A DNA stretch of 64,000 bases, filler included, from Sphacelaria rigidula (lineage: Eukaryota): NCBI GenBank assembly GCA_964200075.2. It is 9 parts of 9 records of this genome, joined end to end, with 100 filler letters (N's around TTAATTAATTAA, not from the genome) between each part and the next. Parts side by side here need not be neighbours in the genome. Positions count along the whole stretch, not along the records: positions 42,751 to 49,774 come from CAXNAA020016901.1; 8 more parts are not named here. One strand, written 5' to 3'. The notes beneath the pieces are model-generated. The model ran no database searches. It was not told where the DNA came from and saw only the letters and a list, made by a program, of their open reading frames with translations. Shown one piece after another: positions 7,026 to 61,800 of the stretch. The first letter of the stretch is position 1. The number at the start of each line of letters is the position of its first letter. Made by a program: the position numbers and the translations under genes.

Positions 7026-7125
7026 NNNNNNNNNNNNNNNNNNNNNNNNNNNNNNNNNNNNNNNNNNNNTTAATTAATTAANNNNNNNNNNNNNNNNNNN
7101 NNNNNNNNNNNNNNNNNNNNNNNNN
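7026..7125. other. Artificial contig-joining linker (N44-TTAATTAATTAA-N44); also at 14151, 21276, 28401, 35526, 42651, 49775, 56899
   Basis: Identical 100-nt spacers with stops in all six frames, spaced 7125/7124 nt apart. Confidence 0.97.
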
Positions 7126-28400: not shown

Positions 28401-28662
28401 NNNNNNNNNNNNNNNNNNNNNNNNNNNNNNNNNNNNNNNNNNNNTTAATTAATTAANNNNNNNNNNNNNNNNNNNNNNNNNNNNNNNNNNNNNNNNNNNN
28501 CAATGGAGGGATGGGACTTCAACCTCATATTTTGTTTCAACCCCAAAAATTAGGATCGGCTGTTAATAATAGCCTGAGACAACAACCAATTTGAAAATTG
28601 GAATTCCCTGTTCATCATGTTGTGACAAGCTGGGCCAGCCTAGAGGCAGATTGGAAGTGTGT

Positions 28663-31600: not shown

Positions 31601-34600
31601 CTAAACTGGTCCACCGCCACGCCCAAAAAAGTGACGGATTGTTGCCGGAGAGGATGAGTCCCGGCGGCCTTTTCCATCACCCTCCCTGGCCACCTCTATC
31701 CCGGCAGAGACCGCACCCCCGTCAAGTAAAGGGCTGTTACTGCTATTTGCGACGCGCCCTTTGCCCAGCGAGCGACCGCCGCCCCTCCCCCCAAATTTAC
31801 CCCCGCTCCCTCGCCCCGTGTCTGGCGTACCACTACTGGTGCTGGTGCTTCCTCTTGCCGCAGTCTTGCCAGAAGCCTTGGAGTCACCACGGCCTCCTCG
31901 GCCTGCAGCCGACGTCCCGCCGCGGCGGCCACGTCCGGTCAACGATGACAAGGGTCGGCGATTTTCAACGTCAACGGCTTTTGTGACGGCGGCCCTTCGC
32001 CCCCCTCTTACTGCTGCTGGTACTGCTGCGTCTGCTTCCGACGGTTGTTTTTTTTGTGGACGACCTGCTAGTTGCTCCCTTTCTCCTCGCCCTTCTTCTG
32101 TACGTCGCACGCCTGGGGTTGTGGCGTAGGGATTCGGAACCGTCGCCGCCATCGTCGATTCCATTTTTATCGTTGTCGCCTTGTCAGATTTCGGTGTGCC
32201 TTCCCGCGGCGACGGCGGCGGGGGGGATAGTTGGACGCTTCTCAGCCGGTTCCGTCGCTCGATGTCGGCGAGGATGGCCTTCTGGGCCTCCACGTCAACC
32301 GAGTCTACCACTAGTGGCCCTGCCGCCGTCACGGGTGAGCTACCACCACTAGCGCCACGGAGACGAGTTTCTCGGTCCGGTATTTTATCCGCCGTGCGAG
32401 TGGTCCCAGCAGCCAAATCAATAATGCCGGCTTCAGCAGCAGGCGCGGGTAGCGCTCCCAAGCAACGTAGCGGAGGGGGCCGCGGCGACACCACAACCCC
32501 CCCTTTCTTTTCTTCGCTCACCTCACCGAGATTATGCGCGGCATATTCCTCCAGTTGTTCATTACTTCGCCTCTTGCAAGTACCGGTCAACGCCGCCGCC
32601 GTTGATGCTTTCCTTGCGCCCCCGGCGCCACCCGCAATGTTACGCATCCTCTTGGCCGCGGGCGTGGGTACAGATGACGGGGCTTCACTTTTACGAGGGG
32701 TACCGCCGCTGGAGGTTCCACCGCCAAAGCCCGTGCTGCTCGTCGTGGCCGCGGATGGCTTGCAGAAGTACGAGTCTAGGCGCTTGCGGTCTTGCGACAG
32801 GTCCATGAACTCGAGGAAATGCTTGAGGAGTTTTTCTACCGCGGGGCCCGAGGACGCGTTGACGGTCGGGATGATTTTCCTGCCCGCGCAATTCGCATCA
32901 AAGAAGAAATTGTTTTGTTTTCGTACAAGGGCACACAAAAATGCAGCGAGAGACTGACGCCACGTAATGGTTCACCGTCATGTGACATACTCTTGCCAGT
33001 CAAAAGCCTCAACGCTGTTCTTCGACCGGGAGACCGGCCTAGCAGTTACCTATCGCACAGCAACTGACGGCCATCGATCATAAGCACATCAAAGTAGAGC
33101 CATCATCACCTCAGGCCCGCAGAATCTGTTCTTTCTTTTCTTCTCACACCTGCACCTGGTCTGGCCACTAGTACACACTTTGCAGCATCATCTCTATCAG
33201 CGACTCACTTGGGCCGAACGGTTCTCACGAACTCCGTCAACTGCGGATACGAGCTGTGCTCCGAATACGGCAGCGAGTGCACCCTCGCATTATCTGCCAT
33301 ATGTCGTGGCTTGCCACCGTTCCATGCCTCCACCGCGATCGCATCCTCTTCTCCGACCGCCTCTAACCCCTGACCCCAACCACCCTCCCCCTCGTTCTGC
33401 TGGCCCGCCGTATCTTGCCCGTCTCCTCTCGCCACAGCCGAGGCCGGCTCTTCGCTTAATTTTCCAGCCTGCCATGCTGCCGCCTGATTACAGGGATCAT
33501 CCTCGCATCCCTCCAACAAGCTGTCCTCAAAGCTATTCCCAAACCCCACAGAGTCTCCTTCGTCTTTCAAGATGTCGAGGCCAGACTCCTCCAAAAACAC
33601 CGAACTATTTGTCACGGTATCCGGCTCCCCTCTTCCCCGCCCCCGCCCCGTCGCAGAAACTCCCATCTCGAGATTGCGCGCGCGCTTTGTCATATCTTTG
33701 GCTATTTGCTCTCCTTCCTTCGCCGAGTTATGGTGCGTCCATCCTGTCGGCCTAACGCCGACTACGCTGGTGAAGGGCGCGCCGGCCGCCTGGGCCTCGG
33801 CCAGGGCTCCGAGAAGCGCGGCTGGGGTGTGAAGTACTTGGAGCGGCACGGCGCGGACGCGCGCGTGCGGCTCGCCGTCTACACCCCCCGCTCCGGCGTC
33901 GTGAGTTATGTATACCGTGCTGTCCCAAGCGCCGCTTAGACGCATCATACGTGCCTTGCGGCCGGTGACGAGGCACCTGTGCGTGCGAAAAAAAATGCCA
34001 TCGGGGTGAGAGGAGATGGATATCTCGCTACTTTCGTGAAAACAAGCCTTGGGACCAACCATGTCGTGCAAACGGACAAATTATGCGTGTCCCAAGAGAG
34101 TTTGTGTGTACCTCAGGCAATGCTTCAACTGTTTCAGAATTGTGTACCATACGGTTTATCACCCACCCCGCAAGATGGGCTCCTGTTTGACCGGCACTGT
34201 TCTCTGCTCAGTTATCGTTCGAATGACTCTTTATCATGGTTCCCTTTTCGAACGAGTAAATGAGCACTATACGACGCGTTCGTACAGATGTGAAGTTGGA
34301 ACATCGACGCCGTTCGGGGTGGTCAAGCTTGGAATCGAACTGATTCGCTGCTCTCACCGACTGCCGGCAGCTCTCGCCACGGCCTCGAGAACCTTCTCCT
34401 TCCCTATCGAGTACGTTCCCACGAGGAAGAGGGTGTTGGGGTCCTTCTTCAGCTCCATTCGCACCAAGTTTCCCGCTTGCGCCAGTACCTATATCCGCGG
34501 CATGCGCAAAAATATGTGTTGAAAGATTGCAAGGTGCCTGCACACACAGTACTGGTGGAGAAAAAACAAAATTGCGGAGCTGCCGACCGATTAATCACGA

Positions 34601-35200: not shown

Positions 35201-36934
35201 CTGACGAACGGGGGAGGTGGGTGCCCAGGGAGAGAGGGGGTTGAAAGAGCCAACGGGTGTAGGTGGGGATGGCATGTAGAACAATCTGTCAGGGGTCGTT
35301 TGATGCACTAGGTTTCCACTACTCCTATCCTGAGGTCTCTCAAGAGCCACGATACTGCAGAAATTCTACTCGAGCCTTTCGGAGATGGTAGGTGCTTCCC
35401 GGCAGCACGCCCCAGTGAAGGTGAGGGCGATTAAAAAAAAAAAAAAAAAACGTAATTTTTTTTCCCCGTCGGAAAGGGGCAAAAAAAAGTCCCTTTTTTG
35501 TCTTAACTTTTTTTTTTTCTTCTGTNNNNNNNNNNNNNNNNNNNNNNNNNNNNNNNNNNNNNNNNNNNNTTAATTAATTAANNNNNNNNNNNNNNNNNNN
35601 NNNNNNNNNNNNNNNNNNNNNNNNNACTTCCAGACCCGCCGCGTTTCGGAATATGCATGCAGATCTGGGTTCCAAACTGTGCAAAACTACTTGTCGATAG
35701 GACCCGGGGCTGGTCGTTATGGCGCCAATCCCCTGTCAAAAGGGGGTTGTGAAAAAGGGGATTATCCCCTTCGTTAAGACGGGCCCTTATGGGGACCCTG
35801 CGCTCCAGTTCCGACCGATATAGTGTGCTAAACCACCAACTCATGTTTGTGCAAAATGTTCGTTTCCGGTACATACATCCTCCTCAGACGTTACAAGCTT
35901 TAATACAGTTATGGGTGTGGGGGGAGGGCTGGCACGGTTGTCGAAAACATGGCAGCGGGTGCAGCGATTGTAACAGATACAAAAAGAAGAGCAGTGCGAC
36001 TTTTTTTATCCTACATCTGCGCAGACGGTAAAGTTTGGTTTGTTTATTAACCAAAAACAACCCATCTGTACATACAAGAGCAGGTAGAATGCCCGCCTGC
36101 CAAGCGTGTACGATGAGTTGAAGGGCTGCTGGTGAGGTTCGTCTGTGTGTGTGTGTGTGTGTTGCTTGTAGTACTGTGCGTGTACATGTGGTGGTTGGGT
36201 CGCATTATGATGCTTCGTCTCTATTGAGGGTGGCGGGCGGATTCAAAAATGTGCTCGTTCTTAGACTGGCGGGTCTGCTCAAATGTGTTGTGGAACTGGT
36301 TCTAAGGTACAGGCAGGCTCTGCGAATCTACCTGTACTGGCAGATATACGCCGGCCGACCGACTGCGCACACGATGGTTTCAGAATTTTTGACGATGTGA
36401 CATGTTGACTCTTAGTCAACTCAGAGCCATTATTTCAATGAATAGATTATACTAGTCGCACATCAGTTGTAATGCATACAGCTTCCTAGCTTGTGCGTGG
36501 CTCAGTATAACCCGAAGGTACTCGCTTCATACCTTCCATGACTCCCGAGGTAAATAATGGGCACACAGTCAACCCTGCACTGAGAATTTGGATGCATCGA
36601 TTGTACATATCACGCACTTCTTATTATCGTGAGTCGGGAACGTCATTTACAACTTGCCTGACCAACTTGTTGAAGGTGAGCACCGGTACATTTTCCCCAT
36701 ATCTTCGGGCTAATGCGGGACTAACAATTTGTACAGGTTGACTCTTCACTTTCGATGGGCCCTGCCTGAACCACGCGTAATTTTCTCACAGCTGTAATGC
36801 GCGCAAGATGACTGTGGTGCATATGTGTTATCGACCCTCGACTCAGTGGGACCAGCGGTTCATATAGCATGACTGCTTGCGCGTCATGGCGAGTCGACTC
36901 GTATGAATCCTGATTTGTCCTAACCGTGAATTAG

Positions 36935-37800: not shown

Positions 37801-40800
37801 TGAAAAAGGGGTGTTATCAGAGGTATACTGCAGTATGACTGCAGTACCCCACTGGGAAGGCTTTGACAGTTTGTACAGGGTTCACACAGACAGGTTTGAT
37901 GTTGACACAGACAGGGTGATGCAGGAGTACTACACAGACCGTGTTGATGTGGATGCAAGAGTGGCAAGAGTCTTGGAAGTATGCTTTAGCCAGAGGTGTC
38001 TTGATTGGATGCTTAAGGACGGTTGGGGGACGAATAGAGTAGCCAGGAGCTGTCGACATAGCGGATAAAATGTGACGACCAGGTGCGGTGCATCTTCTCG
38101 TGGTGTTTTGGAGTGGGTCGTGCAGAGCTTTGGGCACGCCCCACCCCCTTTCAGTTCTCACCATCCCCACAACAACTGGGTTTTGGTTTCCTGCAAGAAT
38201 ACTAGGCGCTGCTAAAAGATATATAAACCTCTACACGGCTCAAGTTTTGGCTACTTTCCTCCTGCAACTACACCCATCTACAACGAGATATCCTCGGCTG
38301 CCACCACTGTAGCTCTCCTCAGCTCCGAGTGTTAGTCTCACATCAGAAACACAGACACAAGAATCTACACGTGAGAAGCAGGAACCTCCGTGTCTCAAGA
38401 GCGGAATTCAGGTTCCTTTGAGTGGTGTCGACGACTGGCCTGCTGTGCTTCTGCTTGGGGATTCCGGCTGTATGCTCGAGAATTTTTTGGTCATGTCAGG
38501 TGCGAAGGGCACTCGTGGTAAGGGTGGGGGGAGAGGTCCGGTTACGCGGTCCCAGCGGTCGGCTGCGGCCCCGCGTCTGGCCATGCCTCCGAATCCGGAA
38601 ACAGCGCACGCGGCGCGTGCTGCGGATAGTGAGTCTGGCTCTGATTCGTCTATTCGTAGTGCCCATGCTGTTCGTTCGATGGCTCGGTCGGAAATTTGGT
38701 CCCCCAAGAGTAATATCCTCTCTGCACATGTTGGTGAGAACTCCCCTCTGTCGTCAGAGGGTAAGGCGGGTGCGTCGAGGTCGACCCCGCTAGGTGAGAG
38801 TATGATTGGTAAGGTTCAAGGGGGTAATGTTATGGTTAGTACGGGTGGGGGGAGGGCAGTTTCGGCCCCCGAATCCCCGGAAAAGGGTAGAGAGGTTGTG
38901 GTACGTGAGGTTGATCCCGGCTCCCCGCATGAGGGCTTGCCGGTAGTTGGTGGGGGTTGCGGCTGGTGTATCAATGACGATTCGATCGCCGACCGACGGC
39001 GACGGTTTGATCCCAAAATTTTGGCACAGTTAGATGGGGAATCTAGCTCCGCCTGGTTGAGGAGTAACGGTCGAGCGGCGGTGGCACTTCCGCCGATTCG
39101 TAGTTTAAGTGCGACCTCGGTATCCGGTGAGGTCCTCCAGTGTGATGTATGTGGGGGTGGAGATGCCCGTCGCCGTGATGATAGCGACGGTGCTGAGGGT
39201 GACGGCGTTGAGAGAGGCCATGATGGGCGGTCGCGGCGGGGCAACAGTCCTCACAGTGTGTCGTTGAACCCCCCGCGTGAAAAGTGTTTGGCTATTCCCG
39301 CAGACGCTGCGAGACGGTGGACCCGTTCGGCACGACATACTGCCGATGCTTTTGAGGTACGTGTACCGGCTGCAGCTGGGGCGGCAGATCCCATTCGGGG
39401 CTGCGGCGAACCTCCGGAGGGGGAGATGCCGTTAGCGCGGTTGTCGGAGCCGCATATCGTGTTCTGCCGCGAACAGTGCCCACAGGTGCGGTCGACGCGC
39501 GGGTTCATGCGCGCGCTTCACGCGCTGAAAGCGAGTAGCCGGCCAGGTTGTGGACAAGACGGGTTTTCGAGGCGCGATCATCAAACGTGCGTGAAGTCCT
39601 GCGTTCTAAACGTGCCGAGTATTGTTATGCGAATTGCGGATTTGATGTCAACTGTGACTCGTTTACTGGCAGAGGGTGCATCGGGATCGGATACCCTAGC
39701 GTACTTGGTGCAGGTTATAACTATGGAACTTAGTCCCCTCACTCTGGATGCCGTTTACGAGAGTGGGTTAATATCCGAACGTTCGAGGGAACAGTTTTTG
39801 CGGACTATTTGCGAAATTTCCACATTTGGGTGATAATTATTCAATGGTTGGGTGCCGAGATGGCCCCGGATCAACAGTACGTAAAGTCGGCAATGAAAAC
39901 GGCCATACAGGAGCAGTTCCCCGGGATTAGAGGTCACGTCTTTGCGGGGCGCGATTACTGTGCGACGCCGTTCGACTCCCACGAGTCGCTGATGGGCAAG
40001 TGGGACCAGTTCAGATTTAACACGATGTGGGCGCACGCGCCGCGACTCGTGCAGGGTACTGGAGGGGGGGCGGCGCGGAGCCGTTATCCGCCGAAGTCAG
40101 GTCAGGGTAGGACTTTTGGTGGGACCATGATTAGCATCACGGACATGCGCGATTTCCCCTGCGAGGATCGGGAAATGGAATATGTGTTTATGGTGGGGCG
40201 GGCTAATTCGGACAGGTTCGGCAAAAACAGGGACCCTCTGTTATATGAGCCTTTCCCAACCCGCGAGCTGAAGAACAAAGCACGGGAAGCATTCGGGCCG
40301 TATTGTCTCAACTGCGGCAGCGCCGACCACATTTTGGCTCGTGAGTGTCCGAAGGAGTATATTAGTAAATCGGGTTTGATACATCACTCGATGGGAGAGG
40401 GGACGCCGGAGGAAGTCCGCCAGAAGTGGGTGCGGTGACAGCGCCGCCTGCGCCCTTACTTTATCGACAATTACCCTCAAAAGAAATGAGGGCGTGACGG
40501 TAAAGTTCTGGCCACTTTACCGGCAGCACAAGGGTCAGTGCAACATGATGCTCGCAGGGCTCAAAACGTTCGGTCGCCGGTGTCATTGGGTCCACAGCAG
40601 GCCGAGCCTGCCGTATGTGGCGAAATTTCTGTCATCTCCCGTCGGCACAGCGAGGACAATGGCAAGGAGGCAGGGTACCGTCTGCTCGGGGGTGTCGGTG
40701 AAGGTGCGGGGGGAGGTTCTATGTTGAAGGTAGCCGCGGGGTCTGATCAACTTTTGAGGGATACTTGCGAGACGGTGGCAGCCCCGGCACTTTATGCGAA

Positions 40801-42650
40801 GTCTACCGCGCGCCGGTCTCGCGGGGTGGAAATTGACCGACGGGGAGGGGACAGGTCCCGGGGTAGCGCCCCGGGTGGTCTCTCTCCCCACAGTGGTGAG
40901 GGTGCGCGGGCGCAAGGGCCACTGGTGCAGGCCTGCTGTCGCGGTGAGCGTTGCTTACGTCCGACAGACGCTAGGGTCAAGGACGGTCCTGGTGTAACGG
41001 TACCGTCGCATGATTTGGAGAGCCCAACCGGTGAATTTGTCGCGGGTGAGGGAAGCATTTCGCGTCACGGTGCTCGGGACTCAAGACGTTCTCGGCGCCG
41101 TTATCCTCAGAAGGGGGCGGTTTCATGTGCTACCAAGTGGGGGCCTGCTCTCCCTGGCTCCGGGCCAGCCGGGGGCGGCCCAGGCTTTGACCGACCATCC
41201 TTGCGGAGGATCTCGGTGGAAAGGCCAACCAGTCTTTACACAATTTCGGAGTAGGTCACTTCGGGGACCACTGCGGGCTCGGTGCCTGGCAATATGGTTG
41301 ATTTATCCAACCACGTGAAACCGTTTAGTCCCTCCCGTTGCACAGGTACAGCCGAGGCGGGTCACCTTGCACGATCTGTGGCTGGAGTATCGGACGAAGG
41401 TAGTCCGATTTGCGTGGAAGAGCATATTTATGTTCTAGACCCGTCGGGAAATCGTTTGAATAGTATAGATCCACCACCTCGTACTCCCGATCCCATCCCC
41501 TGTCAGGTACCGCGCGGGCGGCAAGGGACGTTCTTACCGGAAATAGGGGATGTCTCCGGTGGATATGTATCCATCGACCGCGCTCGGAACACGGCTGGGG
41601 TGAGGGTGTTTGGCGGGCCTAAGGCGACCCGCATGTGGGATTGCTCGGCTTTGCTCGACAATGGGAATCCGGCGACATTTATCCTAGAGAAGGTATGGTT
41701 GTTCATGGTTGTGTACGGGGCTGGATCTGGTGACGCGATGCGGGAGATTGATCCCGTGTCGTGGGGCGGGTTCAATGGGGTGCCTCTGAGAACATGCTCA
41801 CAGGTGCGTTTGAATATCCGTTTTGTGGACGGCTCACGCAAAGGTCGGACAACAGGCACGAGTGCATGTTTCGCGATTTACGCACATGTTGTCCCGGAGG
41901 GTACTATGTCGTTTGATTTGCTGCTGGGTTGCGATGGGTTGGCTCAGTTCCCGGTGCGCTCGTATCGTGATGTTAGTGATGAGAAAACTATCATGTCGCT
42001 CGCAAGACCCGCTATGGCTGTTGGACCCACCCCGTTTGATCGCTGAATCCAAAACGCGTGGGCATGATTGAACAGTCGACGATGTCTGATGAGGAGGTTG
42101 TCGTGGTTTTTTCAGGGAAATCTGAGTTGGCGATAACGCAGGAGTTGACGTGGGTACCCGTCACACTGCCTTCGACGGGGGGGGGGGCTGCCCCGGACGG
42201 TAATTATTGTGTGTATTTCGAGGCGGGGTGGTCCCCGTCAGAAATGGTTGTGGAGGCGGGGGATTCAGTTATTCCTTTGCGATTTACAGACGTGGAGTGT
42301 GCGTTGGTCTTACTGGGGATGAAGTTCGGGTCAGCAGGGCACCCGTTGGTACCTTGCTCCCTAAATGATGCGAAAATTTCCAGGTTGCCGGACCCGGCTT
42401 CGACTGCCGTTTTTGCGGTTGATCCGGTACTGCCAGAGCCGCTGGAGGCTATGTTCGATGATCTATGTGCGGAGAAACGTGCCGCGTTCCGTCGATTGTG
42501 AGGTCGTATCCCTCCTCACTTACATAGCATCACTTTCGATTTACAGGACAAGTACTGGCAGGTGGATGATATTGATAAGTTAACAGCAAATTGTGCGAAT
42601 TGAGGTTTAACTCTGAGATGAGGCTCAAGTGGGCAACCCGACTTGCGACC
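37801..42650 (+). mobile_element. Degenerate LTR retrotransposon (probably Gypsy): 5' LTR ~37801-38410, broken gag-protease
   Basis: TGAA...TTCA LTR candidate; frameshifted ORFs 38418-39833 and 39809-40438 (knuckle CLNCGSADHILAREC), 41282-42046 (protease-like ALLDNGNPATFI ... DLLLG), 42058-42501; cut at gap before RT. Confidence 0.7.
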
Positions 42651-43225
42651 NNNNNNNNNNNNNNNNNNNNNNNNNNNNNNNNNNNNNNNNNNNNTTAATT
42701 AATTAANNNNNNNNNNNNNNNNNNNNNNNNNNNNNNNNNNNNNNNNNNNNGAAATTTCAGCTCAAGACTCGTCGAATTAGGCCGTGCGTTCGACATTTTC
42801 CGTGACGCTGCTGCACCCCACTAATACCTAGTGCGGGATGATTGCTGACGTGAAGCCGCCGCATTACAAAAAACAAAACGCACTCCGACACGCGATCGCT
42901 CAACGATATCAGACCCACCCTGTACTCTATGCAGTACAATAATGTCATCGGCAATACGACGCCAATCGTACAGCGACGCCGTCCTTTGTCATCAGGTGGA
43001 TCAGTAGTTCACTGTGATATGCTTACATCGGGTCCATTCGGGAAACTGGGGAAGCTGTGGGGTGAGCAACTTTTAGCAGCTCTTAAGCTGGCCCAGCTCG
43101 TATGGTATGTGAATCTACTTCCTTGGTTCGGTAGAAGCATATTTACGAACGAACTTGAGCAACATGTGCGCCTCCTTGCATAATTGCATCACGTTGTGCG
43201 TGGAGCAGCGGCAGCTATATCGTAC

Positions 43226-46200
43226 CTGCTGCGTCACCCGCCACGCAAAACGACTCGGTCTCGTCCAGCCCAAAGCTGCTGGACACGCAGCCATCGGAAG
43301 AGTCTGCTTCCCAGAAGAGGTACGGGTACTCCCTGCCGGTGCTCAGATCTTGGAGAGAGCCATCGGGACTGGCGTGAACGCTCCACTCGTCCTGCTGGCC
43401 GCCAGCCACGACGTCCTGGAACTCATCAAGTGAAACATCGAGCAAGGTGTTGAGGGCTTTGTTCTCACATATATATATTTTCATGTGGAAGTCGTGAGAC
43501 TCCCGGTGACGGTAGAGACCGTCGAAGGTGGCCGATGATTTCCCTCGAGTTATGTAGTCAAGGACTGACCGTAAGTCGTGGAGTTGAGGCAAAGTGGATC
43601 ACTCGGGAAAGTTCGACGAGCGCGAGCGAGTTAGCCCGATGACGAAGTCTGAGAGTCTTGGTCAAGAGTGATCCCCAGGGATAGCCAGCAGTTCGCTGGG
43701 AAGATCCCTGTTACCTTGGGGTCCCAGATCCGGCTGTACAGATATGGAAGTTTCGGGGCTCCTGCGAACTTACCCCTGTAACAACAGCCGTTCACTAGGT
43801 TGCACGTCATAAAAGGAAATCTCTCCGCACATGCCCAAATGGCGATCTCCACATTCATGTACATACCTATATATCTAGCTAGTCACCGATGGCTTGGTCA
43901 ACGTGAGACGACGAAAGGCGTGGCTTCGACGGTGCGAGGGAAGTCAAGGGTTGAGGGTTGCTCAACGCAGGCATCGACAAACAAGCGTCAGGAGGGTTGC
44001 TGTTGCGCTACCGGCAACGCGGTAAATATGAAGCCAAAGCAGGGGGCTTACCTTGGGGTCTGAGGCATTTTGCCGCAGCTTGCTTGGAAGTTCTGGATAC
44101 AGTGCAGAGAGGCTCCAGAGCGGGCTCAGCTTCAGCGCCACTGTGGCATCCAGGGGGGCTGACGGGTACAAAAGGATCACGGATTTGCCCCCGGTCAACC
44201 TCAGAACCAGATGGAGGAAGCTCCCTGACCGAATGTTGTAGTCTCTCACCGTGTCGCCGCACTCTAGTTGTTTTCCAGCGAAGATCAACCGCTGCAGGGA
44301 AGGACGGATTCCAGTCTGGTCTTGAATCCTTAGCTTCATTTCAAACACTGTGTTGTCGGGGTCAACATGTATTGCTGACGGTGTACCGGTGAGCGTTTTG
44401 AGAAATATTTCCATGCTGCGATCAACCATGCTATGATCAACCGCGCGACGCCTGAAGATCAGGTGGAGGGTGCACCCACCATAAATGTTGCAGTCTCTCG
44501 CCGTCCTGTTATCCTCTAGCACACGACCAGCGAAGATCAAACTCTGCTCGTCAGTATGGATTCCTTCCCGCTTTTGAACCATCGCCTTGATTTCGGAAAT
44601 TGTGTTATCGGCATCAACACTCATTACAACGTCATCTCCGGTGAGCATCTTGGTAGCAACTCGTATGCTACGATAAACCGGCACCCTACCACTACCCCAC
44701 ACCGCACCGCACACTGCGGACGGCGGCTTGTTGCATTCATCGAGAGTGGCCTCGAGATCTGCTCCAGCCGGTTGGGACGCGGGGTTCATCCAACTCGATG
44801 ACGCGTCAACGCCGCCACCAACCGCAGGTGGTGCTGTACTCACGCCTTTTACCCCAGTTTGCTTGGCACCTAATGACAACGTGGCATCAACGGCGGCACC
44901 ACTGTGATGGCGAGGGTCTCCAACACACGATACCACACTCGCCAGCGTCCGAACTACGGGTCCAAATCCCTCGGGGCGCTTCGCAGGGTCTTGGCTCCAG
45001 CATTGCTTCATCAGAGGAACAACATCGGGCGAAGCAGACGCCCATTCTGGAATTTGAGGTCGCTCTCCTCTACAGAGTACCGCTCCGATAACCTGGGCAG
45101 GTCTCTTTCCCTTAAACGGCTCTGTCCGGGTGGCCACCTCGAAGCATAGGACACCAAAGCTGGTTGGGCGCAACACATGGGGGTAAGAGGACAGTGCTTG
45201 CGGAAAATGTTTGCGATAGGAAGCCAGCCACATAGGGAAAGGGGGCCAATAACTTGCGTTCTCACCGCAATGCGAATGTGAGCGAACACCCCCACGCGAG
45301 CAACCATTACTCCATTGAATATCCCGGATACTTCACCTGTACACATCCGTTAGCTCATTCGCGGGGCTATCGTCCATCTCCTCTGGAGACATCCATTGAG
45401 TGGTCCCTACAGCCCCTCGTATCGACCTGCTTGAGAGGTCGGTTTTGGTCTTGGATAATCCGAAGTCACAAAGCTTGAGGCGGCCATTGGCGAACATGAG
45501 AACGTTCGCAGATTTGAGGTCGCGATGCAGAATACCGTTGACGTGTAAGAATGACATGCCTCTCGCAACGTCGTATAGTAGCGCCGTCTGCAGCCCATGT
45601 GTGAGCGGCTCGCTTGTTGAGTGTAGGTACTGCTGCAGCGAGCCCCCGCTAGCGAGCTCGACGACCAGGCAAAGATGAGGGAGTATGGTCGAAGCCGCGT
45701 ACAGCGGGGTGACGAAATCGTGCTGCAGACTGGAATGGAGGCGAATCTCCTCCCTGAGGGCGCGGATATGGTGGCGCTGAAGGCCGCTCGATAGAAGTTT
45801 CTTCACCGCTACGTCCGCCCCGTTCCACTTTGCCGTACGCACTTCGCCAAACCCCCCGGACCCTAGCAGAGTGCTATCCTCGAAATCCAGGTCTTCGATA
45901 TAGTTGATTTCTTCCCATTCATTTAGCTCCCTTATTACCGACCGCTCGTCTTTTCGGAGTTTCTAGGTAATGAGATACAGCAGCATATGCCAAGAAAAAA
46001 AATGTTTACATATCAGATGATTTGTCACCCATTGCAGCATTCTCGGCTACCACTTGTGACGTACCGAGGTGGAACGCAGCATCAAGTTGTTCGATGTCTG
46101 CACTTCGCGTACCGCCAAATGTTTGTCCGATGCGAGACACAATAACCCAGTCGCCAATAAATGGTGAAAAACATCTCCTACTCGTCATATCAGTTCCGGG

Positions 46201-46786
46201 TGCTGGCGATGAAATGGGACAGGGACCAAAAGCGGCTGAGGAATGTCGAGGATGGCGATCGCGGCAAAGCCGCTACGTTACCTGAACGTCAGAAACTCAC
46301 CTCCAAGGCAGACAAAAGCCTTTGTTGTAAATGCGAGCCCTCTATGTCGCCGTCGATGGGGTGGCGCCTCATTCTTTCCGTGACGACTATCATGTTTTCG
46401 AGATCTTCCAGGCGGTCCGATACATTTTCTTTCGCCCACACGTCCACTTCGACGTCCCGGAGCACCTGCTGCATCCTTTCGGCGAGGATGTGGCCGAGAT
46501 ACGTGAATTCAGCGGCATTCGTTCTCTGAATCAGGGCGCGGTCGATTTCTCGCATTTGTACGTGCTTGTCCAAGAAGTATCGGATTCGCTCCACGGTGCC
46601 TAAAAGCTGGCGAAGTGACTCGGAAGGAGACAGTCTGACGCCTTGTTTGACGACGAGCACGCGAGGCTCGATAGCTGCCACTCTCTTGAACAGCCGGCAC
46701 GCTTGATGATCGTCCTCTTTGATGCCTTCCGCGACATCATGGATATCGGCCAATACGCGAAGAATGTCTGCCGCGACTTCCGCCAT
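43226..46786 (-). CDS. MLKL-NTD-like helical domain + TKL protein kinase + 2 ubiquitin-like domains + uncharacterised YLFWE domain; exons 46786-46301, 45962-45337, 45159-44052, 43415-43226; 3' end not found
   Basis: ATG at 46786 ([36 protein letters not shown]...); kinase [38 protein letters not shown]; Ubl1 ~44669-44440; Ubl2 44414-44187 ending LRLTGG; then KSVILLYP...[11 protein letters not shown]...[13 protein letters not shown] junctions in phase, no internal stops. Confidence 0.9.
43484..43853. mobile_element. Solo LTR (370 bp) in an intron of the kinase-ubiquitin gene
   Basis: TGTGGA...TCCACA termini with 4-bp TSD TTCA on both sides. Confidence 0.7.
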
Positions 46787-47659
46787 TGATCCCGCGGTGA
46801 GGGTAGGGAGCAGGGAGCAGCGTCCTTTCTGTTCAGGCCGTTGAAAGGAAGATAATCGAGTTTGGCGGGATGTCTTGAAATCAAATGACAATGGGGGTGC
46901 CCCAACGATTAGAAACGCCGGTGTTGTCGGCATGGAAGCGGCCTGGACCATGCCGCTGCCCAGCTTCATAATAATATATATCGACTCTGGTGAACAACAG
47001 TAGTTACCTACTGCTGCTGAAGTGCGCACTTATATCTACAACCACCTCCATGCCATGGACGGTCAAGCAGCCCAACACGCCGGAGTATTGGCGCGAGCTA
47101 CATATCGATTGAGGAATTCCTGATTAACGGTATGCTTTGGACGCAGTCGCGGTGCACCGTATGCCGTGTTGTACGATATCAGCAGCATAAAGTCATCACG
47201 GGGCCGCAGACCGTGTAGCTTGCTGAGACATGTACACTGACTTCGGTGAGAAAAAAACGATAATCTTTTGCACCGTATAGCTGTCAGACCTCGCACTGGG
47301 ATACGATCATTTGTAAAACCATCTCGTTTTTATTTTTCGAAGACTTTTCGCCGGTAATGATCATCGACCGTAAAATCATTTCCGAGGTATTCAGCGACCA
47401 CGGTAATGGTACAACTCTTTTTTGTTTTACTCCAGCGTGTGGGATGCCGTCCTGATAACGATCATATTTTAGAATAACGCAAACAACATCCAACACCGTT
47501 CGTGGATATGAAACACCAAATGAAAATATCCTCCGGACGGCAAACAGACATTCGGAGCCACAAGACGATGACCAAACGCAAAGCTACGCCCAGCAACGTC
47601 AAGTGCTTCATCGCCAGGCCAAACCCGTGAAAGAGCACGTTTCCCTCAAACTACGGTAT

Positions 47660-48370
47660 AGTATCCATTTCTTTTTGTGTTTTGCTTGTGTTGAACTTTT
47701 GATTACTTTTGGTTTTGTTACGACTTAGGCCAACTCTTACGGGAGCCGTTCAAAATTCCAGTCGAAAACTGGCTTTTCGGCCTTTCTCCGTCGATTTACG
47801 CTTGAAAAGAGGGCTAGGCGGATGTTGACGCCTTGGAATGACTTGCGCTACTCGTTGAGACCGTTTTAGGGCAACTCTGCATTTCCCGCTGGCCGCACTT
47901 TTGTTTGGACCAAATCAGGCCAAACACGAATTTCCAGTAAAAAACGGTCAGGTGATCAACCCCCCCCCCCCCTGTTTTTGTTCGCTTGACCGTTTTTTGT
48001 TGAAAATCTGTGTCGGCCGAAAATGAAAGTGCGACCAGCAGGAAATGTAAAGTTGCCCTGGAACGGTCTCGATGAGTAGAGCAAGTCTTTCCAAGGAGTC
48101 AACAGCCGCCTAGTCCTCTTTTCAGGCGTAAAACGACGGAGAAGGGCCGAAAAGCCAGTTTTCGACTGGCATTTGAACGGCTCCCATTAGAGTCGGTCTT
48201 AGCCTGCCATGTCGTTCTGCTCGACCCCCTTTTTTTTCTTCTGTTCCTCCTCCTCTTCAGAGCGTGTTCCAGTTCCGTTTTTCTTGGGAACGCCATCATG
48301 ACACCATGGCTTTTGTCCCCTGGGGGGTCAGTTAGAGTGCGACAATCAATCAATCAAGCAATCAATCAAC
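47660..48370 (+). mobile_element. Non-LTR retroelement 3' end with (CAAT)n tail, split by a MITE
   Basis: Matches ~9325-9563 once 47728-48201 is removed. Confidence 0.7.
47728..48198. mobile_element. PIF/Harbinger (Tourist-like) foldback MITE, 471 bp
   Basis: Long imperfect TIRs (GGCCAACTCTTACGGGAGCCGTTCAAA / TTTGAACGGCTCCCATTAGAGTCGGTC); TSD TTA; empty paralogous site near 9380. Confidence 0.9.
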
Positions 48371-48473
48371 ATGATATAACGTCTTCACATGAACATGAAA
48401 CAACTTCTGAATAACGTCAGTTGACCCTGTTGGTACTGGCAATGGAAAAGTGCTCATTTCGAGGTCCTGTTTC

Positions 48474-48578
48474 TAACCCTTGGACCGCGAGGTTAGTCTT
48501 CTGTTGAATCGGCATCAATTTCAAGTGAAAAAAAGTATGCATGATCCAGAGAGACTGATCTCGCCGTCTAAGGGTTAA
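48474..48578 (-). mobile_element. Solitary copy of the ~100-bp palindromic MITE arrayed at 8483-9118
   Basis: TAACCCTTGGACCGCGAG...TAAGGGTTAA with reversed core gaatcggcatcaatttca. Confidence 0.8.
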
Positions 48579-49144
48579 ACAAAATAGGGTTGATTATTTG
48601 CGGTTTCCAAGGACGACTATTTTGCGCAAAGGGTGTTTTTCAGATCCGCGACCGCTTCCAGTTGGCGGTGAATCTCGTAAATACTGTATCGCACCTCAAT
48701 CCTTCCACGTGTGGTGAGGGGATTCCTGTGGGCTCGGCCACACTACTTTGTCTCTGTGATGTGGCTTAGCACGCTTGCCAAGTGTTGGGCGGGTACGACC
48801 TCCGGACTGCAGCACAACAACACTCCGGTGGAGTGCGTCACCTATACAAATGTGTGCCGCAGTACCACACGCGACTAAATATACAGAAAATAGACAGGTG
48901 GTACTGACTTTTGTTGTATAAAATTCAGCCGCCGCGGTGCTGGTTTTTGCTGTGTGCACAAAGTTGAACATACTTGACCCGTTGCGTCCCCCTCATTCGA
49001 TAAAACTAATCCAACCGCACCGGGGCGACAGTTTTGGTGCGAGCATGATTTATGTCGGTCGATTTTTCTGTGGCATTCCGCCGTAAAAATGGTTTTGTTG
49101 GTATTTTCTTTCCCATATTTTCTTCTTTGTCAGCGCTTAAAATA

Positions 49145-49560
49145 ATGAGGAGGCCTTCGGGCCGGGGATGGGAAGGGAGGGTTCCCAAAGGGTTGAACAC
49201 GTACATACACCATGTGTGTGTGCACATGCGGCCATTTGGCTGCCCCCCAAAATGCCCCCGAAGGGATGCACGGCCCTCCAGAGGCAAAACAAGCCTCCGG
49301 AGGCCTTCAACTCCTCTGGAGGAAACCAAACTCTACCGACCTGGAGGGCCGCCCACCCTTCCGAAGGAATATGGGGGGTAGCAGAAAGCCTTCCGAGAGA
49401 TGCGCGGCCCTGTAGAGGCAAAAACAAGCCTCGGGAGGCGTTTCATCCCTTTGGGGGTGGCAAAAAAATCTCATCTGGACGGCCGCGCACCCCTCCGGAG
49501 GCGTTTGATTCCTCTGGAGGCTCGAAAAGTTGACCGACCTGAGGGAATTATGGAGGTAGC
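49145..49560. repeat. Degenerate GC-rich tandem/subterminal repeats
   Basis: Recurrent cctccggaggc, tcctctggagg and agaggcaaaa(a)caagcctc motifs. Confidence 0.55.
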
Positions 49561-49655
49561 CTCATGGCCGCGCGCGCGCGCGTGTGTGTTGTTGTTTCAT
49601 CTACGGTCTGCATCTTTCGGTAGATGTGGGCAGACCAGCCGGGGTCACACAGGAG

Positions 49656-49774
49656 CAGTGTTGTGAACCGAAAACCGAAAATCCGTTTTTCGATCGGTTT
49701 TTGCCAACCGAAACCGGGTTTTTGAATTCGGTTTTTCGGTTGCCAAAAACCGACCGAAACCGAGAACCGACTCG
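49656..49774 (+). mobile_element. hAT-like transposon terminus, truncated by gap
   Basis: CAGTGTTG start followed by dense AACCG/CGGTT repeats in both orientations. Confidence 0.6.
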
Positions 49775-50327
49775 NNNNNNNNNNNNNNNNNNNNNNNNNN
49801 NNNNNNNNNNNNNNNNNNTTAATTAATTAANNNNNNNNNNNNNNNNNNNNNNNNNNNNNNNNNNNNNNNNNNNNATCTTCACCCTTCATGCGACTCGCCG
49901 AACACACCACGGCGCTTCGCGCTTGGTGGATTGAGTGCGAGCCTGGTCCGGCGAAAACCCGGCGTGCTCCGTCCCGGCGTGCTCCGTCCCGGCTTTGTAG
50001 GGATGCAAGGTCAATGGTCTGATGACTATGACATGCATGATCATGAGTACACAGTAGGAACGGGTAAACTTCAGCAGTATATCGGGTCACACCACGCACA
50101 TGAACACCCAGAAATATGGCTCAAGCGGTGTCTGCAAACCACTCTGCCAGCATTGTGCTGGCTAATCTTTTCTCTTGAAGGCATACGGAATATCGGGTGC
50201 ATTGTCACCGGTTCTCAGCGCCTTCACTTCTCGGGGCGTAAAAGATAGGTTACGAGCTGAACGAATATACGATGTGCTCTGCTTGGCATGGTAATGGAAC
50301 CTCGGCATTTCTCTACTCGTCCACCAG

Positions 50328-55200: not shown

Positions 55201-58200
55201 GTGAGGTTCTTGAGGGGTACGAGACGATACATACCAAATAATTGTACCTGTTTCTGGGCCTGTTCTGCTGGTTCGCACGGCCACTCTCCCTTTAGTACTG
55301 TAATCTAGTATTGCCTTGATATTGTCTACATCGCGATTGTACGTTGTCAGATATTGTATATGTGTCCATCATGTACTCGTAAGACGCTGACGTGACATTG
55401 GTTTGCAGTCCAGTCTTAGCAGGAATGATGGATCCTACTCGACCAGGATCCAGGCGTGGTTGCCCCCCCCCCTTTGGCGTCCACTCTGCCAGGTTCCAGA
55501 AAACATGTGCTTTTTTGTCTCTCACTCTTCACATTTGGTGCAAATTGCCACAGCTACTGCTACTGCCAAATTATCCACCTCTGTGACGTACCATCGACGG
55601 TACAGATGGCACAAGTTTACGGTTGGGATCGTGTGGCGGCCCACGTGACTAGGTTCTGTGCTAATTAGATTGCAGATGATAGCGTTCACGCCGCCTACGA
55701 GGGTGTTCGCACAGTAGCTATAAAGCACATAAAGCAGGTGTTGATTCGACCATTCGGTCGTTGTTTTGACAGAGCAGTCAGCAACTTATCAATAGCGTAA
55801 GTCCCTTGCTCACACCACGTGCTCACCAGTAGGTTGGGTGCTTGAAAGCATGCTTATGTGGCGGCAAACAGTAGGCAGGAGTGAAATTTTTGCAAAAGCA
55901 CTTGCCACCGCGCATTCGTTCCTTAGTACATCGCATTATTGAATCATATACGCTATAAGAGATGATACGATGATAGTGAAGACAGGGCTAATACCGTTGG
56001 AGAGCCGACTGCAGCAATCCGACGATGCATGGCCTGTCTTAAGCGAAACACGTTATCACGGGCAATGAATCAATGCAGGCGCCCGAAACCCGTTATCCCC
56101 TGCGAATCAGTTTTGAACCGCGTGTTCGACACCACCACGCAGAAGCAACTCTGTTGGAAAGCCTGGAACATTACCATCACGCAAATTTTAGACCTCATAG
56201 ATCGTTGAAGTTTGCAGCCGTTCATGAGTTACGGCCCTCTGAAGATGAACACGGGGAAGTTCCGCTGGTGTAGCTGCATGCTGAAATACCAGGTAGTTGG
56301 ACACAACTCGAGGTCAACTGCTTCTGTCCAGCTACAGCTTTGATGTTGTATTTTGTTTGCTGAGCATTTCGTCAAAAGAGAACAAGAACATTTCTCCCAT
56401 TGTCAGACAAGGGATGACCCCCCAGGAAGCCGGTATGTGTTGGCAGAGAAGTGCGACCTTTCGGTTCGGTAGCCTTTGAGTGGTTCATGCTCTCTTTGCG
56501 ACCGCTGCGGCCTTGACGTGACCGCCAACCAGGCCGGGTCGGCCTTGAAAAGATAAAGACAGTGTAAATGGCATCGTCAAGACCGCTGTACTCTATGCAC
56601 GTATGTACTATATATGTGTATATGAGCGGAAAGCACACCGGCGGTGAAGGGGCTACTACTAAGCACCACCGCTCGATCGGTGCCCAAATGACGGAAGACC
56701 GCGAAGAGAAAGCTCGAATCCCCATGTATTGTGGTTTCACGACTTCATATTTTTGACTCTGTTCTTAGTAGCTCCCCCCCCCCTGGTCTGATGACTATGG
56801 CATGCATGATGATGAGTACACCCCCCCCCTACGCTGCGGCAAGCCTGGTCCGGCGAAAACCCGGCGTGCTCCGTCCCGGCTTTGTAGGGATGCGAGGTNN
56901 NNNNNNNNNNNNNNNNNNNNNNNNNNNNNNNNNNNNNNNNNNTTAATTAATTAANNNNNNNNNNNNNNNNNNNNNNNNNNNNNNNNNNNNNNNNNNNNCT
57001 TCCCCTTGGTCAAACGATGAAAACAATTTGCGGATCACGGCCCAACTCGTCTGTGTCGATGAGATATTGCCTTTAGAGCATAAATCCGTTTTTAGGCTGG
57101 CCCAGCTCGTAGAAACCTTTTCAGCCCTAAGGGCCTCCAAGGAATAATGCGACAAACCACGGGAGCAGAAGAAGCAAGCGTGCGTCCCTCAGCAAATTGC
57201 TAAGTCATCTTTTCGGTGGGGTTGCCTGGATGCTTGCCTCCTCAAAAAATCGTGAGGTCCCCTGAAAGACAAACATACGATCAACTCATCTATGGCTCGA
57301 CCGATCGGCCCAGTGTGGAGCGCTGTTGTACTGTTTATTTTGTATTTTGTCATCATTCAGCAGAAAATAAAAAACTATACTATTGTGTGTTCGACTCGCA
57401 CTTCGCGCTCGGGTTTCAGAACCCACGAGGTCTACAACGGGACTCTTGACCCGAAAAGTGGTGTCAGCTAGAAGGCGAACCCCCCCCGCAGAACTCTATT
57501 CAGAACGCTATTGTTCATAGGAGCTGGAACGGTGCTCCATCTCGAAAGGGATGCGTGGTCAATCCTCGGACGACCAAGGCAAGCACTAAATGGGGACACC
57601 CCCTGCCCCCTTCAACCCAGAACCCGTGAACCAAACGGTTACAAATGCTGCTGCACTACCGTGTCTTCACACCCAGAACAATCGTACTTCTCAAAACCTC
57701 ACCAAATCGCAAATACAGTGCTACTTACAACACACAAATTCTACATTCTCCTTACATGGCCTTCACGTAGTACTTTTTCGCCAACCAATCATGTCGCATT
57801 ACCTCATTCACACATGTCTCAGAAATCTGACTCTGTGTTACCCATACATCTTGTGGCAAGGCGACTCAATCTCCACAGCCGCTACTGCCTCTTGCACACC
57901 ATCCCTCGGTTCAACAGTTGCAGCCAAACGATACTCTGCCGCATGGCGCCCACCGCCTCCGCCTCGCGTTTTTGCACAACCTCTGCATGTACTTCGCCAA
58001 GGTAAATAAGCAGTCAACAATAAAGCACCTGCAACCAACACCATACTGTTGACCGCAGTCGCAAACATCATCATTGTAAACCAACTGTCGGGGTAGCTCA
58101 TGTCGCGATGTTCGCCCGAGGACACAGGAAGATTTGGACTATTAGGGGCTGGTGTATTTTCCTGTTGTTTGTGTTCTCCGCCCTTGCTGCTCCTGCCAGT

Positions 58201-58807: not shown

Positions 58808-61800
58808 TGGTTATATAAGTTACTCGATCCGCGACGGCGGACCGGAATACCCCCTACAGTCGAAAAATACGTGATTTTTGTATATTTGTTTTTTTTGCGG
58901 CATAGAATCACGCGCGAATACAATCAAGTAAATTGTGGGTCTAGCTCAGGTGTGTGAGAAGCGCACGCAAAAAACTGTAGCCCAATCCTCCGCTTCGTTG
59001 CCGCGATCTATAGAGCCCTGCTGGACTCAGAACAAGGTCACAAGATTGCTGCAAGGGTTTTCTCCCTCACTAGGGCCTGGAGACTTCAAGACAGTTGTTA
59101 TTCATAAACACACAGCCTTCGTTATCGTAAGTTACCACATGCGTGAAGCATGTGATGTTCAAATCCACATAGTCTGCTGATCAGACCCGCAAGTCCGTCA
59201 ACCAATAGAAAACACCTACAGCAGATCGTTCCACATGTAGATCATGAGCCTGCACGTACGTGTACTGGAGGTGGACTACTCTACAGCACCCCCGAAAACT
59301 CCGCACTACTCGAAGAAGAACGCGAGTTTGACGAAACAGTAGACACCGACTATCACGTACGCCACCTTTGTCCCCCCGGTAGTGACATACGACCTTGTAC
59401 TGTCATGTTCAACAAAACCAATAACGTGCACAACCTTGAACATCGACACTCAAAGACAATGTCTCAAGCGAAGTCAGGGAAGTCAACCATTCTTCAACGG
59501 TAATTTCCACGTAGGCATTCTCACACAAAGCAAAGGTGTCGAGTATAGTACCATCTCAACCAGTAGCATTCGATATCATCATATTTTCAAAGCTTCACAC
59601 CATACTTTGCCTGCAAACGTGCTCGCACCTTTTTACTTAGTCCCAACTTACGCAGCTCGGGTTTTACAAATTGCGGGGCTCCGTCCGAAATATTTTACAG
59701 AGGCTACCACGAGTTTTCATCTTTCCCAAATTCGACGCACTCCACTTGTACATAAAATACATCTCCCGCTTCGTCCTCAGATATACCGACAATAGCCGCC
59801 ATCTCGAACTCGCCTTGTGCAAAAGCATACTGGAACACCTCCCTGACATCAGCCGTAATCTTCAGCTCCTTGTCCGCATAAAACCGAAGGCGGGCGACAT
59901 GCACATCCTGTACCTCGCCAGTCACAATGTTCTGTACCCCGTACACATGTTTGTTGTTCCGCCGTCACAATCCGCCAATGCCCCGTCCACGCACTCACAA
60001 GCTTCGGCGTAGTTCCCGAACGCCTCACCCTCGCTGCCAGCACGTAATCGCCAACCACGGAGTTAGGAAGCTTCCCCTTACTAGCCACATGTCTCTGTAA
60101 ATCGCGGTTCTTGTCGACACGTTGCGCCACCTTCCTGTGCAACTGTTGCTGAGCCTCAACGATCGACGTCACCTGTCGCCTCAAAGCATCTTCGTCAAGC
60201 ACATCGACGCTCCATTCGCCCCCAGTTGACGATGCCAGAGTAGAGAACTGGTGCGCGGTGCCCGGCCAAACATAACATGGTATGGCGTGCTAGCATAACG
60301 CTTTCGGAAACCAGTGTTCAATGCCCACGGCACTGCAGGTACCAAACTCACCCATTCACGAACATCACGCCTTTTCTCTTGCAACATTGCCTTCAAGGTA
60401 CGAACAATCTCACGCATCATTCGCTCACAGGTGCCATTAGACCATGGCGAGTTAGCAACCGCGAATCGGCGATCCAGCTTCAGCGCCTTCTCAAGCGCTC
60501 CCATTACACGGTTCTTGAAATGCGATGCCGTACCCCTGACCCATACCTCTGGCGACCCCAGCGTTTTGCACCACGTCAACATATGCTTCACCGTCGTGGC
60601 CGCCGGACAAGACTCCGGGGGCTCGAACCACACGCAGTTGCACAAATCGTCCATCGTGATTAATATAAACTTGAACCCGTCTCCTTCGTCTAAGCCACTA
60701 TTTCCCAGGGGGGCACTCTCGCCAACGTGAAGAAAATCAAAATGCAGCACCTCCCCTGGGCGTGGACCATGCACCGTATCCCCGAAGGGACGCGGGACCT
60801 TCTCTCCCGCCTTGGAATCCAAACAGTGCGGGCACTGCTTCACAAACTCAGTCACATGAGTCTCCATCAGGAGCCAACAACAGTACTCTTGTAAGCGTTG
60901 TAAAGTTGCCACAACCCCTCGGTGACCAGCCCCTTGCGTGTGAGCGCATACCATCAAGCGTGTTTGTAGTTCTCTCGCTTCCGGTGGGATCCACAGTGCA
61001 TCCCTCCCTGCAACATGCACGCGAAACAAACCGTCACCGTCTTTGAAGACACGCCCAACAGCGGCAGTAAACGTCTCGGCCCCATCAACCATACCTCCTA
61101 AACCCTCACGGGCTTGCTCTTGGGCTTAACGAACGGCCTCCTTCGACCGTAGCGTCTCATCAGGCTCTCCACTTGCAAAACCAGCGATGGCTCTCATGGA
61201 TACCGCTGGAACGTTCACCCACCGGGACAGTAGATCTTCCCAGCAGTTACGCTCACCAGAAACATGCCTGATTGAATAATCATACTGCCCTAGTATGGTC
61301 TTCCATTGTTCAAGGCGCTGGGCGGCAGTATTCGCCACTGTGGTCACGCATGCTTCGGGATCAAAAATATTAGCGAGATCGCGATTGTCCGTAAATATGG
61401 TCACTCCTCCCCACAAAAGGTACTCCAACCTACGAAACGTACTCACGATGGCATATCCTTCCTTGTCCACCGTAGCCGACCGCAACTGCGCTCCTCGAAA
61501 CGTACCACTAAGAAATCTTAGAGGCTCATGACTCATGTCCTATACCGCTATATCGCGGTCCAATTCAGCTCTCGGTACCTGGGTCTCGAAACTACCCTAA
61601 TGAAGATCCGACGCGTCTGGAAACATCATCACCTCATAGCCCTCCTTGGGATGTGACAGAGCAACAGCATGTGTCACCAAATCTTGCGCCGCTGTCCAAG
61701 CTTGCGCACGCTAAAACGTCCACGCCGCCTCCTTGATTGTCCTGTTTGAAGCAACCCGCTTTGTACAGCGCACGTTGTCCACTACATGCTCCTCGAGCAG

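Follow-up and report, generated by a model that had tools for sequence, protein, structure and literature searches.

The ubiquitin of ribosomal-protein fusions is nearly identical to free ubiquitin, and the modifiers ISG15 and FAT10, two tandem ubiquitin folds of which only the second ends in Gly-Gly, are small proteins that stand alone and have an E1 of their own. No MLKL is known to carry ubiquitin-like domains. According to an excerpt of PMC9703124, deubiquitinases normally cut linear ubiquitin fusions, except where Pro follows or G76 is mutated (e.g., to Val). Sibbald et al. (2019) reported algal ubiquitin fusions, including ubiquitin-NiSOD and ubiquitin at internal positions (PMC6332867, partial text). 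We analyzed a stretch of 64,000 nt from Sphacelaria rigidula (GCA_964200075.2), hereafter the window, in which nine record parts are joined with 100 filler letters between them. Its part at 42,751-49,774 (CAXNAA020016901.1; adjoining parts need not be neighbors in the genome) holds an intron-containing eukaryotic gene on the minus strand, in which an MLKL_N-like domain and a kinase are followed by two ubiquitin-like domains (Ubl1 and Ubl2) and the start of an unnamed domain. An earlier note on this DNA had read the pair as an internal di-ubiquitin with one dead and one cleavable terminus, the processing of which would leave a kinase ending in Gly-Gly. On balance, and with moderate confidence, we favor another reading, that the pair came with an inherited cassette, would stay within the chain, and sits in a copy that has partly decayed.

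Two stretches of the predicted protein matched PF00240 (E 2.5e-42, 142.9 bits), a value too low for a match by chance, and the best 60 of 355 matches in a sequence search of the Protein Data Bank were all ubiquitin or polyubiquitin. Ubl2 is exactly 76 residues long, as the earlier note had it, and aligned without gaps to the ubiquitin unit of the named polyubiquitin P0046, with 45 of 76 residues identical (59%). It retains L8, I44, H68, V70, K6, K27, K48, R72 and L73 and is altered at K11, K29, K33 and K63; R74 is Thr, so that the tail reads LRLTGG, again as previously described. The residue after the Gly-Gly is Lys, not Pro, and a conserved-domain match bore out the claim that the next domain begins there directly. 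Ubl1 is 45% identical to ubiquitin over 75 aa (BLASTP) and 44% identical to Ubl2, and does end in LHLIFRRRA, without Gly-Gly.

The locus therefore resembles natural ubiquitin fusions (polyubiquitin, ubiquitin-eL40/eS31, ubiquitin-NiSOD) in having a gap-free, 76-residue, Gly-Gly-ending domain directly before another part, with a residue other than Pro at the seam; Ubl1, ending RRRA, has no such terminus. It differs from them in that Ubl2 is only 59% identical to ubiquitin, that the tail is LRLTGG instead of LRLRGG (HKFRGG in a sister copy described below), that homologues without Gly-Gly exist, and that cleavage is here only a possibility. The partner of Ubl2 is a domain without a name and could not be recognized by name in the tables of PMC6332867 (partial text). 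Like ISG15 and FAT10, the pair consists of tandem folds with Gly-Gly on the second alone; unlike them it is not free-standing but embedded, at residues ~535-694 of at least 802. An in-chain ubiquitin fold behind a kinase is also found in the IKK/TBK1 kinases, and TBK1_ULD (PF18396) scored 34 bits on Ubl2 against a cut-off of 31. That match lies beneath the far stronger one to PF00240, however, and the window gene differs in its ~100-residue linker between kinase and Ubl1 and in having two ubiquitin-like domains, the second with Gly-Gly.

The domain behind the Gly-Gly is ~190 aa long and follows the pattern KPVIYLYP...W.V.A.PDG...YLFWE...FCV.G...FL..L..LGL...YWLP...PD..R.FM...GF.V.EWGG. A phmmer search of 1.84 billion representative proteins with exon 4 as the query gave 86 matches, 22 of them at E<=1e-10. 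Judged by source names, the hosts are many bacterial proteins without a ubiquitin fold and also brown algae, a green alga and a fungus. No model of the domain was found in Pfam or NCBIfam, and a profile search of the Protein Data Bank for a solved relative reached a best E of 0.59. For the model (pLDDT 92.3) of P0153, a stand-alone bacterial member, Foldseek against the Protein Data Bank gave a best E of 0.15 and a VIA wide search a best Z of 4.0, to generic beta-sandwiches; neither search assigns a fold, which does not make the fold new. The protein atlas returned no usable match for exon 4 and only 'hypothetical protein' clusters for P0153, and a literature search with the motif strings of the domain found no paper.

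In 15 fetched proteins, together holding 17 junctions, a ubiquitin- or SUMO-like domain runs straight into this domain, without any residues between the two. The junction is GG in 12 cases, GA in two and VG in one, and in the other two the GG is deleted. At 47 domain starts without a detected ubiquitin-like domain, Gly precedes the Lys in 20 and GG does so in only 2, which assigns the GG to the ubiquitin-like domain. The five junctions without GG suggest that the module works uncleaved in some lineages. What stands in front of the cassette varies: P0200 has three ubiquitin-like domains, P0188 a U-box, and P0171 NBR1-type Ig domains (here without GG). P0200 resembles the window gene further, since ubiquitin-like domains lacking Gly-Gly precede a last one that has it. 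In P0124, P0208, P0130, P0182, P0145, P0196, P0200, P0188 and P0171, which come from brown and green algae and fungi and share the 'KPVIYLYP...EWGG' domain, the end of the ubiquitin-like domain abuts the Lys as in the window; unlike the window gene, none of them has a kinase, and the window domain stops after profile position ~85. Because the cassette occurs behind such varied N-terminal parts, the internal ubiquitin with a dead and a live end is a property of the cassette and not an invention of this kinase. The Gly-Gly end that the earlier note pointed out is real, but it belongs to a widespread arrangement.

The co-occurrence with a U-box (P0188), NBR1-type Ig domains (P0171) and triple ubiquitin-like domains (P0200) is a hint that the domain acts in ubiquitin or autophagy pathways. 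Its members range from bacteria to fungi and algae, and eukaryotes have repeatedly joined it to a ubiquitin- or SUMO-like C-terminus. This suggests that the domain has a part in ubiquitin biology that has yet to be described, and it may prove of more value than the cleavage first claimed.

The front part of the gene belongs to a kinase family. The N-terminal domain matched PF22215 (MLKL_N) at E 1.2e-5 and 25.3 bits, under the cut-off of 27, and the paralogues carry PF22215 in precomputed domain lists. The kinase matched Pkinase (E 2.7e-33) and PK_Tyr_Ser-Thr (E 8.7e-33) of Pfam, and its VAVK, HRD and DFG motifs are all intact, so that it does not qualify as a pseudokinase; together these results uphold the order N-terminal domain, kinase, Ubl, Ubl that had been proposed. 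A helical domain with weak MLKL_N similarity followed by a kinase fold is also the arrangement of MLKL and of plant and fungal MLKL/HeLo-type kinases, and the sister protein P0213 reads HRN in its catalytic loop, as pseudokinases do. Unlike MLKL, the window copy has all catalytic motifs, and its MLKL_N score stays under the Pfam cut-off. Family searches, which covered length bands of 216-690 and 288-2000 residues, returned 5 matches with the N-terminal domain as the query and 28 with the kinase end and linker. They describe a multi-copy brown-alga family with an MLKL_N-like domain, a kinase and a linker up to 'NKPPSAV.G', followed by TPR or, once, LRR.

Within these bands, none of the 33 matches carried PF00240 and no other predicted protein had the same fusion; the ubiquitin cassette is thus specific to the window gene and its sister copy. 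A search among longer proteins with the ubiquitin-like region, which might have found orthologues of the fusion, listed at least 120 matches, all of the polyubiquitin type. The architecture, an MLKL_N-like kinase with a di-Ubl cassette, is new. A literature search on MLKL in brown algae found no description of this kinase family, and the word 'ubiquitin' is absent from the text of PMC3341825; in both cases supplementary files may list such genes. Brown algae hold an MLKL_N-like kinase family with exchangeable C-terminal parts, namely TPR, LRR and the ubiquitin cassette. A metagenome scan gave three loci at 40-53% identity, which we rejected as orthologues because they are unrelated ubiquitin fusions of other protists. 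Separately, L002, a metagenome/metatranscriptome contig, encodes at 90-1487 on the plus strand a 465-aa protein that starts MHIFVKTLTGK...FAGKQLE, in which ubiquitin, apparently split by an insert of ~280 residues, resumes as ...LQDYNIGSEDTLYLVLRLRGG; it is not related to the kinase fusion.

We propose that the Gly-Gly marks where the two halves of a preformed cassette meet, a ubiquitin-like domain and, directly behind it, the unnamed ~190-residue domain. In this brown-alga lineage, a further ubiquitin-like domain would have stood ahead of the cassette, and the whole would have been fused, in frame and inside one exon, to the end of an MLKL_N-like/TKL-type kinase. The Gly-Gly, the exact length of 76 residues and the Lys that follows would then have been inherited with the cassette instead of having evolved in the kinase. 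Both ubiquitin folds would stay in the chain, where they might offer the kinase surfaces for interaction or regulation, or act as a degradation signal in cis. General deubiquitinases would cut at the Gly-Gly, if at all, only in part and incidentally and not as a designed step, and the window copy would have decayed in part.

The gene model is laid out in Table 1. An open frame of 423 codons (43962-45233, minus strand) carries the kinase end, the linker, both ubiquitin-like domains and the start of the next domain, and exon 3 (45159-44052) holds all of these, with a 9-residue spacer between Ubl1 and Ubl2 and none behind Ubl2. The Gly-Gly codons (44192-44187) are residues 693-694 of the model. 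Runs X6-X8 are called RNA-like here only because spliced contigs, at a depth of 110-160, occur in them and not in X1, which is DNA-like, with introns covered and no spliced joints. In the contigs from X6-X8, introns 1 and 2 (45963-46300 and 45160-45336) are skipped; the joints 45962->46301 and 45159->45337, which set the ends of exon 2, read CT..AC, i.e., GT..AG on the minus strand. P0231, a protein from the same named species, matched the window kinase at 100% over 45869-44973, and tblastn of P0215 extended through the linker to 44703.

The domain does not continue in the read-through frame of exon 3; it resumes at 43415, beyond a 636-nt intron. This intron was placed from a contig ending at 44051, a 194-nt contig at 43224-43417 and the alignment to full-length relatives. 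The domain start at 44052-44186 is 60-64% identical to P0130 and P0135, and exon 4 covers profile positions 6-85 (E 2.5e-17) and shares 81% identity with P0124 and P0208. Read-through past the last donor would end two codons later (TI-stop). Among the contigs listed, none bridged exons 3 and 4 or continued past exon 4, an absence that does not count as evidence. A small exon at 43773-43716 was considered and rejected because of a phase misfit, and because homologues and RNA contigs set the acceptor at 43416/43415.

A sister copy, differing by ~3-9% in nucleotides, is transcribed and spliced (X6-X8 contigs). All spliced contigs listed differ from the window by 3-9% and share two 3-nt insertions with P0213, and so derive from the sister copy. 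P0213 is the database protein of that copy; its source names a brown alga, and it aligns to window positions 45336-46786. It is 85% identical to the window in the N-terminal domain and 97% in the kinase exon, and in the kinase core 7 of 209 residues differ. The sister copy keeps the Gly-Gly, but L71H, R72K, L73F and T74R turn LRLT into HKFR, a change at four of four positions, which speaks against a conserved recognition tail for a deubiquitinase or E1. The residue after the Lys is Pro in the sister copy and Ser in the window. Among the codon changes between the copies that are shown for the seam and exon 4, 9 of 11 alter the residue. The repeat in intron 3 (~43484-43853) is not in the sister copy; a sister-copy contig also ends at the repeat boundary at ~43104.

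The window copy is incomplete at its 3' end. The motifs of the N-terminal half of the unnamed domain (KPV(I)xLYP, W.V.A.PDG, YLFWE and FCV.G) are present at profile positions 3-35 and 6-85, the first in the form KSVILLYP, with Ser where at least 90% of members have Pro. The window thus holds only positions ~3-85 of the 209 in the profile, and the C-terminal ~60% of the domain is missing: the motifs FL..L..LGL, YWLP, PD..R.FM and GF.V.EWGG do not occur in the 64 kb. When the six frames of the window were scanned with the family profile, nothing fell on positions 86-209 and the best match outside the two stretches had an E of at least 7; tblastn of five relatives gave only chance-level matches at E up to 50, and no further domain exon was found in the window beyond exon 4. 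In X1, depth rises from 100-280 on the exons to 1e4-3e5 on the flanks of exon 4 (4e4-2.5e5 in intron 3), and retroelement-like frames were seen by eye downstream in the window. The loss of most of the domain and the repeats around it suggest that the window copy is probably a partly decayed paralogue.

Several observations weigh against the reading that we favor. The ~800 codons in four exons are open, with no stop or frameshift and with the kinase motifs intact, and contigs identical to the window at 44343-44790 occur in the RNA-like runs; the copy may thus be functional despite its shortened domain. Both copies and 12 of 17 junctions retain the Gly-Gly though the adjoining tail residues have changed, which hints at some constraint on the Gly-Gly itself. 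With its I44 patch, R72, L73 and following Lys, Ubl2 may well be cut by general deubiquitinases. The search for the same fusion was, moreover, bounded by length, and polyubiquitins swamped the search among longer proteins. Taken together, the data bear out what the earlier note described and support its interpretation only in part; they suggest that cleavage at the Gly-Gly is possible and that uncleaved, in-chain ubiquitin-like domains in a partly decayed paralogue are more likely.

One alternative is obligatory processing, in which a deubiquitinase would cut after LRLTGG, free the C-terminal domain with Lys at its start, and leave an NTD-kinase-Ubl-Ubl-GG protein, which an E1 might activate for conjugation in the manner of ISG15 or FAT10. 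The length and gap-free alignment of Ubl2, its 59% identity to ubiquitin, its retained L8, I44, H68, V70, R72 and L73, its Gly-Gly end and the Lys behind it all agree with such a step. So do the rule that linear fusions are cut unless Pro follows or G76 is Val (PMC9703124, excerpt) and the algal fusion genes with internal ubiquitin (PMC6332867, partial text). The earlier note had looked to conservation of the Gly-Gly as a check on cleavage, and the outcome is divided: the sister copy retains the motif, as do 12 of 17 junctions, but the other five could not be cut in the canonical way, and the residues before it are not conserved between the copies. An identity of 59%, moreover, contrasts with the near-identity of the ubiquitin in ribosomal-protein fusions, and at this locus the released part would be a fragment. 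In the predicted structure of the close relative P0124, the seam lies in blocks of mean pLDDT 86-88 and not in a low-confidence linker, a weak argument against cutting that does not decide accessibility. We regard obligatory processing as unlikely.

That the gene is a functionless relic, a duplicate on its way out that lost its 3' end to repeat insertions and whose ubiquitin-like features are leftovers, appears to us similarly doubtful. Profile positions 86-209 are missing, one high-copy repeat sits within intron 3 and another starts 123 nt past exon 4, the near-invariant Pro of KPV, kept in the sister copy, is Ser here, and changed codons mostly alter the residue (9 of the 11 shown). None of the spliced contigs listed is identical to the window, and the only RNA-like contigs listed with zero differences are those at 44343-44790. 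Those contigs, however, occur in all three RNA-like runs (and in X1), and the ~800 codons are free of stops and frameshifts, with intact kinase motifs. Since a contig of the transcribed sister copy ends at the same boundary (~43104), the repeat there may be shared and old without having killed expression.

A wider claim can be built on cleavage: that the pair is a protease bait or release switch built into a cell-death kinase, that a Gly-Gly-specific protease of the host or a pathogen cuts after residue 694 and frees a ~76-kDa MLKL-like/kinase/di-Ubl product, which through its exposed Gly-Gly is attached to targets as a giant ubiquitin-like modifier or has its killer domain unleashed, and that Ubl-GG-'KPVIYLYP' proteins form a third class of natural ubiquitin fusions that are cleavable and widespread. 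We consider this quite improbable. If the protein were cut, it would be the first example of a kinase turned into a ubiquitin-like modifier or into a switch triggered by a protease, and in brown algae, about whose immunity little is known, the processing of ubiquitin would be tied to a cell-death family of the MLKL type. Least probable of all is an integrated bait, in which the ubiquitin-like pair would replace a TPR or LRR sensor as a decoy and a cut at the Gly-Gly by a pathogen or viral deubiquitinase would free the MLKL-like killer or kinase part: the cell-death-type N-terminal domain, the variable TPR or LRR parts of the family and the mostly residue-level change in the Ubl2 tail and domain start (9 of 11 codons shown), against less change in the kinase core (7 of 209 residues), agree with it, but relaxed constraint explains such fast change equally well, and a decoy origin does not explain why fungi and green algae have the same cassette after N-terminal parts of unrelated kinds.

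Table 1. Positions of the gene parts, repeats and N runs in the window
Feature	Position	Strand	Evidence
Exon 1: MLKL_N-like N-terminal helical domain, 161 codons, starts MAEVAADIL	46301-46783	-	Pfam PF22215; RNA joint 45962->46301
Exon 2: kinase N-lobe and catalytic core	45337-45962	-	Pfam; both ends set by X6-X8 spliced contigs
Exon 3, first part: kinase C-lobe	44973-45159	-	Pfam PK_Tyr_Ser-Thr positions 189-250
Exon 3: linker, ~100 aa, common to TPR-bearing paralogues up to 'NKPPSAV.G'	44670-44972	-	By-eye comparison with P0215, P0216 and P0218
Exon 3: Ubl1, ends FRRRA, no Gly-Gly	44442-44669	-	BLASTP against ubiquitin; first PF00240 stretch
Exon 3: spacer VDHSMVDRS, 9 residues	44415-44441	-	Read from sequence
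Exon 3: Ubl2, 76 aa, ends LRLTGG	44187-44414	-	Gap-free ubiquitin alignment; PF00240 positions 1-71
Exon 3: start of unnamed C-terminal domain (ends ...DPK), then donor gt 44051-44050	44052-44186	-	Profile positions 3-35, E 0.011
Intron 3, 636 nt, with high-copy repeat at ~43484-43853	43416-44051	-	X1 depth; loose ends 43483/4 and 43853/4; joint 43464->43857
Exon 4: middle of C-terminal domain (YLFWEADSS...FCVAGDAAG), then donor gt	43226-43415	-	phmmer; profile; RNA contig
High-copy repeat, from 123 nt downstream of exon 4	42751-43102		X1 depth 1e5-3e5; loose ends 43102/3
N-run pairs	7026-7125, 14151-14250, 21276-21375, 28401-28500, 35526-35625, 42651-42750, 49775-49874, 56899-56998		

At the spacer between Ubl1 and Ubl2 (44415-44441, minus strand), 15 nt appear to be duplicated in tandem, the first codon of Ubl2 among them. 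Paired 44-base runs of N recur in the window every ~7125 bases, and one such pair lies 350 bases downstream of the region analyzed here; we read them as masked stretches, not as assembly gaps. On the same strand as the kinase gene and downstream of it in the window is a separate gene with a DRMBL (DNA-repair metallo-beta-lactamase) frame at 33205-34071 (minus, E 4.9e-13). Long frames at 38418-42501 (plus), which we take as retroelement remains, show a CCHC-like motif by eye and had no Pfam match. At 60181-63999 (minus), Pfam identified retroelement remains with an integrase zinc-binding domain, a gag-type aspartyl protease and a zinc knuckle.

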